64,000 bases of DNA from Deltaproteobacteria bacterium (GTDB lineage Bacteria > Myxococcota_A > Polyangia > Fen-1088), in NCBI GenBank assembly GCA_033763315.1, contig JANRKS010000035.1, positions 160,001 through 224,000 on the forward strand. The letters run 5' to 3'. The notes beneath the pieces were generated by a model. It was not told the DNA's origin and did not search any database. It was given only the letters and a program-made list of their open reading frames with translations. Position numbers and translations under genes: made by a program. Below, in pieces: positions 19,711 to 27,014 of this stretch (positions are counted from its first letter, which is position 1; each line of letters begins with the position of its first letter).

Positions 19711-19784
19711 GGGGTGGTAGTTAAGTTGGTTATAACGCCGGCCTGTCACGCCGGAGGCCGCGGGTTCAAGTCCCGTCCACCCCG
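19711..19784 (+). tRNA. trnD: tRNA-Asp (GTC); CCA not encoded
   Basis: Acceptor stem GGGGTGG/CCACCCC, anticodon arm CCGGC-CTGTCAC-GCCGG (GTC at 19745-19747), T arm GGTTCAAGTCC, discriminator G. Confidence 0.97.
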
Positions 19785-21221
19785 CAACACAAGTACCAGA
19801 ATCTCCTCACTATTTTCCTCGCCGTGAGTGACCGTGAGTGAGGCTCCGCCGAGACCTCGGGGAGTGCTCCCGCCAGAAGCGGCCTTGGGCTGATCTTCGG
19901 GGCTGCCGTGTTGCCCTCCGGTGGTGCTAGGACCGCCAGCACCCCCGGACGCCGGCGATGAACTCCCGCCAGCGCCTGGCGGAGTCTGCGGCCCATTGGA
20001 ACCACCGGGGCCGCCTTTCGCGGGGTCCTGAGGGTCGTCCATGCGCAGCTTGAGCATCTCCTGGCACAAAGCCGTCCACGCACTCTTTCCGTGCAAGCGG
20101 GTGTAGCCATCGAAGACGTTCCGCCGCGCACCGTGGGTCATCCAGCGCAGTAGCTCGGGGTTGACGCCGTCGGCGATCGCCAGAGAAATGAACGTGGCAC
20201 GCAGGTCGTGCTGGCCCCGCTTACGAGCGCCATCGGCGATCTCGACCGAGAGGCCAATGCGCTCCATGCCTTCACGGAACTTTCGAAGCATGTGGTTCGC
20301 CGAGCGCGACCGCCCCTCGCGCGAGGGCACGAGCAGATCGTCGGGCTTCGCCGCCCTCCCCAAGGACTGCACCAGGCCACCGTCGGGCTTCAACCAGTCG
20401 TTGAGCAGGTTGCGCAGGATCGGATGGACGGGGACCAGCCGGACGCGCCCGGTCTTCGTCCCCTTCACCACCTTCTTCTTGGTGTTGTACGACGTTGCGA
20501 TGGTGATCTGGCCGAGCGGTTCGAGGTCGCGCCGGTAGTCCCGCACGCGAAGCGCCGCGACCTCGCCGAATCGTGCGCCGGCCGCGAAAAACATCGTGCC
20601 CCAGAAAACCCGACGGTCCTGTGGGATGCGCTCGTCGGTGATGAGCTTAAGGATCTCGCTTCGCTCGTAGACCGCGCCCTCGCGCCAATCCGAGTTGGCG
20701 TCGCGCTTCTCGGGGATGAGGCGTTTTTTCACCTGCCACGGGCTGCTTCGGAGCAGCCCATCGACCACAGCGTCGTCGAAGATTCGCCTGGCCAAGAAAA
20801 AGATGTTTCGCTGCGTTCGGGCGGCCAGACCGCTCTGCAACTTGAGGTAACGGACATGATCGACGGCATGCTGGGGTGTGATCTCGTCGATGCGAAATCC
20901 GCCGAGTCGAGGTAAGAGCCACTTCTTGGCGCGGGATGCGTCGTCCATGTCTGAGGACAGCCCATCCTTCTTCCGGTCGGGCAGCCAGCGGTTGACAACG
21001 TACGTCTCGAACGTGACGGGGCCGTTCTTGCCTCCGCTCACCTTGGCCGCGGCACGCAGTCGGCGCTCGACCTGGCGTGCAACATCGCGCGCCCGCTCTT
21101 CACCGTCCGGAGCGTCAGCCGGGACTTCGGTCTTCTCGCGTGCAGTGCGACCGTGTTCGTCCTTGTAACCCACCCACCAGAGAGGGCTGTCCGGCCGCTT
21201 GTAGGCGTATGCCATGTTCAC
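19746..21221 (-). CDS. int: tyrosine recombinase/integrase; ORF reads through attL into the tRNA antisense strand
   Basis: Catalytic R (GARFGEVAAL), K (TKTG), HxxR (HDLR), H (MTHG), Y (FDGY); N-terminal arm-binding-like WWVGYKDEHGR. Confidence 0.93.
   Translation of the reverse strand: MNMAYAYKRPDSPLWWVGYKDEHGRTAREKTEVPADAPDGEERARDVARQVERRLRAAAKVSGGKNGPVTFETYVVNRWLPDRKKDGLSSDMDDASRAKKWLLPRLGGFRIDEITPQHAVDHVRYLKLQSGLAARTQRNIFFLARRIFDDAVVDGLLRSSPWQVKKRLIPEKRDANSDWREGAVYERSEILKLITDERIPQDRRVFWGTMFFAAGARFGEVAALRVRDYRRDLEPLGQITIATSYNTKKKVVKGTKTGRVRLVPVHPILRNLLNDWLKPDGGLVQSLGRAAKPDDLLVPSREGRSRSANHMLRKFREGMERIGLSVEIADGARKRGQHDLRATFISLAIADGVNPELLRWMTHGARRNVFDGYTRLHGKSAWTALCQEMLKLRMDDPQDPAKGGPGGSNGPQTPPGAGGSSSPASGGAGGPSTTGGQHGSPEDQPKAASGGSTPRGLGGASLTVTHGEENSEEILVLVLRGGRDLNPRPPA
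19765..19787 (+). repeat. attL core (23-bp direct repeat)
   Basis: TTCAAGTCCCGTCCACCCCGCAA, identical to 52853-52875. Confidence 0.95.
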
Positions 21222-26814: not shown

Positions 26815-27014
26815 GATCGGCCTCTCAGCTTGCGCAGTGGAAGGGCCTCGCGCCGCGATCCCTCGATGAAGGCCTCGAGGTCGCAGCGCTGAATCAATCT
26901 TCGTCGACCCAGCTTCACGCTGGCGAGGCGGCGGGTCTGGACCCAGCTGCGCACGGTGCCCAGGGGCGCCCCCGTTTCGGCTGCAACGTCCGATATTTTC
27001 AAGAACCGGCTCAT
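26811..27014 (-). CDS. excisionase family HTH_17 protein
   Basis: FLKISDVAAETG..TVRSW..LASVKLGRRRLI..DLEAFI. Confidence 0.85.
   Translation of the reverse strand: MSRFLKISDVAAETGAPLGTVRSWVQTRRLASVKLGRRRLIQRCDLEAFIEGSRREALPLRKLRGRS

Follow-up and report, generated by a model that had tools for sequence, protein, structure and literature searches.

Most integrative islands and phage satellites borrow the DNA polymerase of their host. Integrative islands that carry a replicase of their own are nonetheless an established general kind, represented by staphylococcal cassette chromosome (SCC) elements, tycheposons and pipolins. The 33,088-bp island considered here is a variant of that kind with a family A DNA polymerase (PolA). 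It lies at a tRNA-Asp gene in a 64,000-nt window from a Deltaproteobacteria bacterium of the class Polyangia (assembly GCA_033763315.1, contig JANRKS010000035.1, positions 160,001 to 224,000, forward strand); the window is the whole stretch of DNA that was analysed, and all coordinates refer to it. The original prediction, made from the letters of this stretch, took satellites and integrative mobilisable elements normally to use the host polymerase and named pipolins, built around a family B enzyme, beside them. That background was incomplete: the DUF927 helicase and A-family polymerase of SCC elements, the polymerases of tycheposons and the DUF927–PolA pair of Pyrovirus had already been described.

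Pyrovirus (Thermocrinis Octopus Spring virus, OS3173) has the same kind of replicase as the island, a DUF927 primase/helicase with a PolA; that of the island is nearest to apicoplast Prex and to enzymes of the Aquifex type. Palmer et al. (2020, PMC7689252) describe Pyrovirus genomes as lytic and 37–42 kb long, with capsid, portal and terminase genes; the DUF927 primase/helicase and the 3'–5' exonuclease/PolA are encoded as a polyprotein of about 1,600 aa or as two open reading frames (ORFs). Citing Schoenfeld (2013), the same paper regards the copies found in non-thermophiles as transient polA genes from non-productive infections. Whereas Pyrovirus is lytic, encodes structural genes and has no integrase, the island has an integrase, tRNA att sites and defence cargo, and no structural genes. 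It is not a member of Pyrovirus, and by description its PolA matches two Hot Spring clusters (#8 and #10) in the scheme published by Czernecki et al. (2023, PMC10201439). These authors define the clusters Hot Spring 1 and 2, list the CCPols of staphylococcal elements, and report that Verrucomicrobia, Planctomycetota and Nitrospirae have fusions with an archaeo-eukaryotic primase (AEP).

On SCC and other Bacillota elements, primases composed of an A-family polymerase and a protein that binds single-stranded DNA (SSB) are found with helicases and serine recombinases, and replication after excision has been discussed as one possible role (Bebel et al. 2020, PMC7581432; Rice 2023, PMC10061031). 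SCC and SCCmec (CCPol-MP-Cch2; Cch) resemble the present island in being capsid-less and cargo-bearing, and in encoding, next to the recombinases, a DUF927 helicase together with a polymerase of family A. However, CCPol has little of the exonuclease domain and, together with its OB-fold partner MP, serves as a primase, while the PolA of the island keeps Exo I–III and is accompanied by a separate DnaG-like primase. In addition, SCC elements use large serine recombinases (Ccr) at the rlmH site, in contrast to a tyrosine integrase at a tRNA gene. Pipolins (PMC7385651), compared by description, are likewise integrative, often tRNA-associated and capsid-less, and carry their own polymerase and often defence cargo. 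Their polymerase is a primer-independent family B enzyme, whereas the only polymerase of the island belongs to family A and has a dedicated primase-helicase. The island would work in a similar way without being one of them, and its core genes are not expected to be homologous to theirs. Tycheposons of Prochlorococcus, also compared by description, are tRNA-integrated, mostly by a tyrosine recombinase, and carry cargo, but inhabit a different host phylum. For many of them ‘polymerases, primases, helicases’ are reported, and mitomycin C induces their hallmark genes together (bioRxiv 10.1101/2020.12.28.424599). In the literature searched, which left most subscription journals and supplementary tables outside, nothing was found that treats integrative islands based on PolA as a class.

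The island is probably a self-replicating, capsid-less integrative element inserted in the 3' end of the tRNA-Asp gene. Its ends and the gene string at its tRNA-proximal edge are as follows.

19711–19785, plus strand: tRNA-Asp(GTC), the integration target (ARAGORN).
19746–21215, minus strand: tyrosine integrase, Mx8-IntP-like, 489 aa (phrog_1, similarity to Mx8 Int).
19765–19787: attL core, 23 nt, comprising the tRNA 3' end plus 2 nt (exact direct repeat).
21218–21610, minus strand: HTH-130, a helix-turn-helix (HTH) protein of 130 aa and candidate excisionase just upstream of int (sub-threshold HTH_17, PHROGs).
21607–22068, minus strand: 153-aa protein, function unassigned, ATGA-coupled on both sides (no family match).
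22065–23951, minus strand: family A DNA polymerase, 628 aa, with 3'–5' exonuclease and polymerase domains (Pfam, solved structures, NF011539, tree).
23944–26814, minus strand: primase-helicase, 956 aa, with a DnaG-like core (DUF3854/Toprim), a DUF927 P-loop helicase and a disordered tail (Pfam, fold match).
26811–27014, minus strand: excisionase-family HTH protein (Xis), 67 aa, at the head of the string (HTH_17, TIGR01764).
52853–52875: attR core, followed by a hairpin and a T-run (exact direct repeat).

The ends of the island are marked by a 23-nt exact direct repeat at 19765–19787 and 52853–52875, with a spacing of 33,088 bp. This pair is the sole long exact direct repeat in the window that involves the tRNA-Asp gene, and by our estimate 64 kb of sequence would hold about 3e-5 exact pairs of 23-mers by chance. 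In the assembly (7.63 Mb, 40 contigs) the core occurs exactly twice, and the contig has no third copy even when up to four mismatches are allowed. According to ARAGORN, tRNA-Asp(GTC) is the only tRNA gene in the window, and the integrase gene abuts it. Immediately 3' of the attR core lie a GC hairpin and then a T-run, as would be expected if the insertion had displaced the native 3' flank of the tRNA gene.

The integrase matches phrog_1 (1.5e-32) and the Int of phage Mx8 (35% identity over 460 aa, E = 6e-71). Its homologues at E ≤ 1e-10 number 103, of which many are annotated as integrase and many have a precomputed PF00589 domain. The protein itself gives no match in Pfam at E ≤ 0.01, Phage_integrase (PF00589) included, none in NCBIfam, and a weak N-terminal match only among solved structures. 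Inspected by eye, the translation shows candidate R-K-H-R-H/W-Y residues, with an HxxR region that can be aligned to Mx8 Int. The att core forms codons 477–484 of int, and the reading frame ends five codons further on, inside the tRNA gene. Excised in silico, the int ORF is 546 aa long; integration swaps its 62 C-terminal residues for 5, which gives 489 aa. The integrase is compared here with that of Mx8, a phage which targets tRNA-Asp, whose episomal and integrated Int forms differ in activity, and whose integration reportedly alters the C terminus of IntP. Some integrases, those of Mx8 and SSV among them, extend across attP (Islander paper, PMC4383910). The enzyme of the island is of this Mx8 type, with attP inside its own coding sequence and a C terminus changed on integration; Mx8, however, is a complete temperate phage, and the island is without virion genes. 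By analogy, the 546-aa episomal and 489-aa integrated forms would differ in activity, and the shortened Int may stabilise the integrated state. In one relative of the island (locus L063) the integrase ORF likewise overlaps a tRNA gene, in that case tRNA-Phe.

Six minus-strand genes (19746–27014) make up the string, with successive overlaps of 4–8 nt at junctions read from the DNA. Their order is excisionase-like HTH, primase-helicase, PolA, 153-aa unknown, second HTH and tyrosine integrase, and all six are open and tightly coupled. The stop of xis and the start of the primase-helicase share an ATGA (4-nt overlap), the stop of the primase-helicase and the start of PolA overlap by 8 nt (ATGGATAA), and ATGA again joins PolA to the 153-aa ORF and this ORF to HTH-130. 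At the last junction HTH-130 overlaps int by a GTGA if int starts at GTG 21221, and is separated from it by 2 nt if the start is ATG 21215, which is preceded by a purine-rich stretch. The string would be co-transcribed as a single transcript. In the 10.4-kb region scanned, the one terminator-like hairpin on the coding strand lies inside the PolA gene, and the two strands together hold 8 terminator-like sites against 7.5 expected by chance.

The two HTH proteins flank the replication genes. The 67-aa protein scores 36.2 bits against HTH_17 (cut-off 27) and 35.7 bits against the excisionase model TIGR01764 (cut-off 28.8). HTH-130 reaches 25 bits against HTH_17, under the cut-off of 27, and matches phrog_66, an excisionase/regulator family, at 2.8e-6. 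The 153-aa protein has no match in Pfam, PHROGs or NCBIfam and, by tblastn, no homologue in the related loci; the protein Atlas gives weak helical look-alikes only, with no OB or SSB signal.

The primase-helicase contains DUF3854 (8.9e-15) and DUF927 (7.4e-33) in Pfam. Its N terminus has no match among solved structures by sequence and is resolved by fold alone. An AlphaFold model of residues 1–330, built with eight homologues (pLDDT 87.8, pTM 0.87), resembles the RNA-polymerase domains of DnaG, with 4e2k as the best match (E = 1.4e-8, probability 1.00, TM about 0.5, about 330 columns) and weaker matches to T4 gp61, Twinkle and the T7 gp4 primase fragment. Two acidic residues of Toprim type, E119 and D176, are invariant in the primase-helicase alignment. 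As modelled, this N-terminal part has the predicted fold of a DnaG-like primase core; its DUF3854 portion also matches cyanobacterial plasmid replication proteins annotated ‘CyRepA1’. The middle, helicase part matches the SaPI protein 8tch and the SCCmec protein Cch (5dgk) at about 1e-7 (1.4e-7 for 5dgk), and the NCBIfam Cch1 model NF047345 at 6e-10 (38 bits, against a cut-off of 700). A representative library of 1.84 billion proteins holds 159 matches to the primase-helicase at E ≤ 1e-30. The nearest is a fusion of 1,610 aa that shares 50% identity with the primase-helicase in its N-terminal part and 48% with PolA in its C-terminal part, and two further near relatives are also fused to PolA. 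No record covers at least 80% of the protein among 59 from plasmids and 15 from phages.

PolA carries DNA_pol_A (PF00476, 1.9e-70) and DNA_pol_A_exo1 (PF01612, 1.2e-20), and Pfam finds no 5'–3' exonuclease domain on its 628 aa. In agreement with the original prediction, Exo I–III and motifs A–C are intact, both in the translation itself and where it is aligned with solved structures or with a fused homologue: Exo I is DIET, Exo II N-x-x-FD, Exo III YAALD, motif A ADYGAIELR, motif B R-x3-K-x3-F-x3-YG and motif C HDE. A Phe occupies the presumed equivalent of E. coli F762. The best solved structures are 8jrb (4e-70) and the apicoplast Prex polymerase (5e-66), with Klenow at only 2e-41. In NCBIfam, PolA is nearest to the models of ‘bifunctional 3'-5' exonuclease/DNA polymerase’ (PRK14975) but falls short of their cut-offs: against NF011539 it scores 421 bits (5.7e-126), with a cut-off of 640, which points to a distinct subclade rather than an equivalog. 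Just six among 5.8 billion clustered proteins reach at least 40% identity to it. Together, the DnaG-like primase, the P-loop helicase and the proofreading PolA would form a complete lagging-strand-capable enzyme set, a predicted replisome of the Pyrovirus/Hot Spring type.

The host has a canonical Pol I of its own on another contig, in a 941-aa frame. A tree of 71 PolA rows, none of them dropped, was inferred by a quick IQ-TREE search (LG+G4, 581 columns, SH-aLRT support) with Streptomyces phage Lilbooboo as outgroup; Pyrovirus sequences are not among the rows, and long-branch and composition warnings mean that its deep branching order should not be over-read. The 19-row clade to which the PolA of the island belongs (support 98) also holds 11 further PolAs from mobile modules, six database proteins and the PolA of one more locus, L067. 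This clade is nested in a 44-row clade (support 95) that also holds an Aquifex-labelled protein, a Blastocatellia group and two fusion proteins of a single genome (G042). Host Pol I lies in a separate, canonical clade of 22 rows (support 100), and the three PolAs of phage or viral origin group among themselves (support 99), apart from the PolA of the island. The grouping with host Pol I that the original prediction had named as a reason to abandon it is not seen, the two enzymes lying in separate clades with supports of 98 and 100. By sequence, the island enzyme is assigned to the ‘Hot Spring’/Aquificae/apicoplast clade and not to host Pol I.

In Blastocatellia/Pyrinomonadaceae metagenome-assembled genomes (L005–L009), a PolA of about 592 aa with exonuclease and polymerase domains is located beside genes for NAD kinase, a rhomboid protein, QueF and a permease. 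These proteins (about 33% identical, Klenow-like), the sole yield when genome contigs were scanned with PolA, were considered as mobile relatives and rejected on account of their conserved housekeeping synteny. They look like a domesticated cellular paralogue in the same broad clade (‘Hot Spring 2’), judging from their sequences and neighbours.

Related modules were sought with PolA at E ≤ 1e-60 in two samples of 400 genomes, one from the class and one from the phylum, which may overlap. Matches occur in 9 of 400 other genomes in the class sample (11 loci) and in 3 of 400 in the phylum sample (4 loci); two genomes of the same genus as the host have none at this threshold. At 11 of the 15 loci a primase/helicase recognised by Pfam is adjacent to PolA or fused with it. 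A DUF3854(/DUF927) protein precedes a separate PolA at L057, L058, L059 and L064, and the two are fused into proteins of 1,592–1,625 aa at L062, L063 and L066. At L060 and L061 PolA follows a Toprim-D5_N-DUF5906 primase, while L041 and L042 each hold a copy of a 1,537-aa fusion (AEP-DnaB_C-exo-PolA). Recombinases are present in 9 of the 15 fetched stretches and stand directly downstream of PolA in 6, as a tyrosine recombinase at L057, L062, L063, L066 and L043 and as a serine recombinase at L059; in 3 (L061, L063, L066) a tRNA gene lies beside the recombinase. The closest relative, L057, comes from the same family. Its PolA is 50% and its primase-helicase 45% identical to those of the island, a xis homologue stands directly upstream of the primase-helicase, and the order xis, primase-helicase, PolA, int is that of the island. 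Near the modules of the relatives are found type I restriction–modification (R-M) genes, BrxC/D, AddAB-like nucleases, PLD nucleases and methylases, together with replicon accessories in the form of a beta-clamp (phrog_947, 3e-43) and ParB-like genes.

L057 also bears on another reading of the junction between the primase-helicase and PolA, namely that the two are a fusion broken by a frameshift. This idea was rejected: the PolA frame ahead of its ATG is Arg-rich and off-frame-looking, and L057 is likewise split, with a 4-nt overlap.

Some of these genomes hold further arrangements. One (G406) has three distinct PolA modules: L059, with a DUF3854 primase and a serine recombinase; L060, with a Toprim-D5_N primase; and L061, which lies at a tRNA-Val gene, combines an integrase of P4 type with an AlpA-Toprim-D5_N primase and carries type I R-M cargo. 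In G042 the 1,537-aa fusion of AEP (TOTE-like), DnaB_C, exonuclease and PolA occurs twice (L041, 10736–15346; L042, 10205–14815), each time with an upstream D5_N protein and an adjoining IS481-like HTH gene; this four-activity replicase sits on what looks like a transposable or repeated unit. At L058 (genome G563) a gene like the Pol III beta-clamp (14988–16115; phrog_947, 3.3e-43) lies about 4 kb downstream of PolA.

A metagenome scan with an alignment of the PolA clade kept 80 loci, most of them too short to judge. A phmmer screen finds a primase-helicase adjoining or fused to PolA in 16 of them, and in 21 the PolA open frame is at least 1,000 aa long, these stop-to-stop lengths being upper bounds. 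Recombinases lie directly downstream in 8 of the 80, to which PHROGs add two (L100 and L165). Head, packaging and connector PHROGs are absent from the 281 flanking ORFs (76 + 85 + 120) of the genome loci and 12 long metagenome loci, and Pfam families for capsid, portal and terminase from the 168 ORFs of the 15 genome loci. Scans of viral contigs give one partial PolA match and no match to the primase-helicase. In phage collections all PolA matches are below 60% identity, the best among the matches listed being about 25–30%. The original prediction would have given way if homologues always sat in full prophages; the modules found here instead stand beside recombinases without recognisable structural genes, and the architecture appears to represent a recurrent but rare family of capsid-less islands.

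This recurrence bears on whether the island is a decayed prophage, in which a Pyrovirus-like temperate relative would have lost its virion module, accreted defence genes and become immobile. Such a history would agree with the DUF927–PolA pair being the replicase of a capsid-encoding virus, with the Mx8-phage-like integrase, and with the view of mesophile polA copies as leftovers of non-productive infections (PMC7689252). It is nevertheless quite unlikely, given the open frames and tight coupling of all six core genes, att repeats that match exactly, and a module that recurs without structural genes across 15 genome and 12 long metagenome loci, with no head or packaging match among 281 flanking ORFs. 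Moreover, recombinase and primase types have been exchanged between loci while the architecture is kept, which would not be expected of independent decay.

Within the island itself, capsid, terminase, portal, relaxase and type IV secretion system (T4SS) families are absent from 22 ORFs searched with Pfam and from 16 searched with PHROGs. About 24 of its 33 kb are taken up by the defence genes and the replication–integration string, which in our judgement leaves too little room for a virion module. The original description of six overlapping minus-strand genes, tRNA-integrated and lacking capsid, terminase, relaxase and T4SS genes, is thus confirmed by the junctions, the att repeat, Pfam and PHROGs.

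A capsid-less element could also be a phage satellite of the P4, PICI or PLE kind, silent until a helper infects, then excised, copied by its own replisome and packaged in helper capsids. Phage satellites share with the island int, a xis/AlpA-type regulator and a primase module at a tRNA att site, and an int-xis-primase core at a tRNA gene with defence cargo is typical of them. Among the relatives, L061 combines a P4-type integrase with an AlpA-Toprim-D5_N primase; HTH-130 is weakly similar to a small terminase (2.3e-5), and 33 kb would fit a phage head. On the other hand, Pfam and PHROGs detect no capsid-remodelling, packaging or terS gene above noise among the ORFs of the island, no helper prophage was identified, though no search aimed at one was made, and no satellite family is known to encode a DNA polymerase. 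This explanation, which differs from that of a self-replicating island in trigger and vehicle only, is considered unlikely. AEP primase-helicases, some with DUF927, are also known from tRNA-integrated elements (Kazlauskas et al. 2018, PMC5862659).

In a third explanation the primase-helicase and PolA are not a replicon at all, but a defence, conflict or repair module carried as cargo. Rice (PMC10061031) raises this possibility for PolA-SSB/helicase operons, the AEP domain of the G042 fusion resembles the Pfam family of the ‘TOTE conflict system’ (7.8e-6, under its cut-off), and PolA modules do sit in defence islands. Their consistent place, however, is between xis and the recombinase at the edge of the element and not among the cargo, their homologues include a viral replicase (PMC7689252), plasmid Rep and the replicative helicases of SCC and SaPI, and relatives carry beta-clamp and ParB-like genes alongside. 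A role as cargo is therefore regarded as very improbable.

Several observations weigh against a self-replicating, capsid-less island. Excision, the circle and autonomous replication are inferred from gene overlaps and homology, and a scan of the string and its upstream region found no sigma-70-like promoter site, convincing iterons or origin. Among public sequencing runs, only two, both of DNA, hold 5–7% of the sampled words, and no RNA run is listed. The same-genus genomes G525 and G637 keep the left flank and the tRNA-Asp gene; they offer no clean empty site, since no right flank was found in them and the synteny past the tRNA gene is rearranged. Viral ancestry is likely, since a genuine virus, Pyrovirus (PMC7689252), has this type of replicase and a genuine phage, Mx8, this type of integrase. 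HTH-130 resembles the small terminase family phrog_57 (2.3e-5), a weaker match than its own excisionase match, and two metallo-beta-lactamase (MBL)-fold ORFs match the ‘tail protein’ family phrog_7043 (8.5e-13 and 2e-16) through the MBL domain only. About 6 kb of ORFs in the island have no family match in Pfam, PHROGs, PADLOC or NCBIfam and could conceal a highly divergent packaging or transfer gene. Among the relatives, PHROGs give two weak, repeat-type ‘tail’ matches, both in L120, and the PolA of L067 belongs to the clade yet has a metabolic context without mobile genes. The exonuclease domains of the L058 and L064 PolAs go undetected by Pfam at 1e-5, and in Blastocatellia the sister PolAs (‘Hot Spring 2’) have syntenic neighbours of the housekeeping kind.

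The self-replicating, PolA-based defence carrier proposed originally is supported in part, as an intact, capsid-less, tRNA-integrated carrier of recurrent architecture, with its own primase-helicase and a proofreading PolA distinct from that of the host; its replication remains a prediction. In the mechanism envisaged, a signal would switch on the six-gene string, after which Int and an HTH/Xis protein would excise the island as a circle. The primase-helicase of the island would open and prime this circle and its PolA would copy it. The resulting rise in copy number would serve maintenance or transfer, and the dosage of the Hma and Gabija cargo would rise with it incidentally. Upon reintegration, Int would be cut from the predicted 546 aa to 489 aa.

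If this is correct, an island with a full primase-helicase-polymerase set could control its copy number after excision independently of host replication, with a bearing on the upkeep and spread of defence islands, and defence-gene dosage could rise during phage attack. It would also change the reading of the extra polA copies of mesophiles, which PMC7689252 describes as leftovers of failed infections. The natural series of split and fused primase-helicase-polymerase proteins would be useful for work on minimal replisomes and on the origin of the Pyrovirus and apicoplast replicases. A broader proposal, more doubtful, is that such islands are for family A what pipolins are for family B: a self-replicating family, widespread and as yet without a name, whose split or fused primase-helicase–PolA replisome is exchangeable between recombinases and whose cargo is amplified on induction, and which was the mesophilic source of the Pyrovirus replicase, of the polA replacement in Aquificae and ultimately of apicoplast Prex.

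Beyond the string, the island contains the following features.

27099–29776: uncertain gene calls, possibly a regulatory or origin region (no family matches except HTH_17, 2.9e-4).
27099–27884, minus strand: 261-aa ORF within this region.
28417–28671, minus strand: weak HTH ORF with an HTH_17-like motif (2.9e-4), in the same region upstream of the string.
29777–46679, plus strand: defence cargo HmaA, HmaB, GajA, GajB, a second HmaB and HmaC (PADLOC).
46782–52502: other genes of the element, namely a 404-aa unknown (plus strand), two MBL-fold ORFs (minus strand) and three unknown ORFs (minus strand).

The small HTH ORF at 28417–28671 may, from its motif, act as a regulator. The cargo is recognised by PADLOC with E-values of 6e-184 for HmaA, 3e-111 and 7e-100 for the two HmaB proteins, 3e-121 for GajA, 1.5e-120 for GajB and 1.4e-127 for HmaC. 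Gabija (gajA/gajB, 36251–39906) lies between two 1,003-aa HmaB paralogues (33243–43192), so that one defence system appears nested within a duplicated gene of another. The 3' ends of the HmaB paralogues form a 300-nt direct repeat that is 76% identical (35951–36250 and 42889–43188). The two MBL-fold ORFs match PDC-M48B-like in PADLOC (9.8e-41) and Lactamase_B in Pfam, and for the 404-aa ORF the protein Atlas gives bacterial hypothetical clusters only.

Directly outside attR, a BREX-like cluster occupies 54447–64000. It includes BrxB (PF08747, 5e-19), a DUF6079 protein of 1,220 aa, a Schlafen/AlbA_2-HATPase_c_4 protein and, cut off by the end of the window, a methylase of the Eco57I/MmeI type. 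The presence of this cluster beyond attR makes the tRNA-Asp locus a compound defence island.

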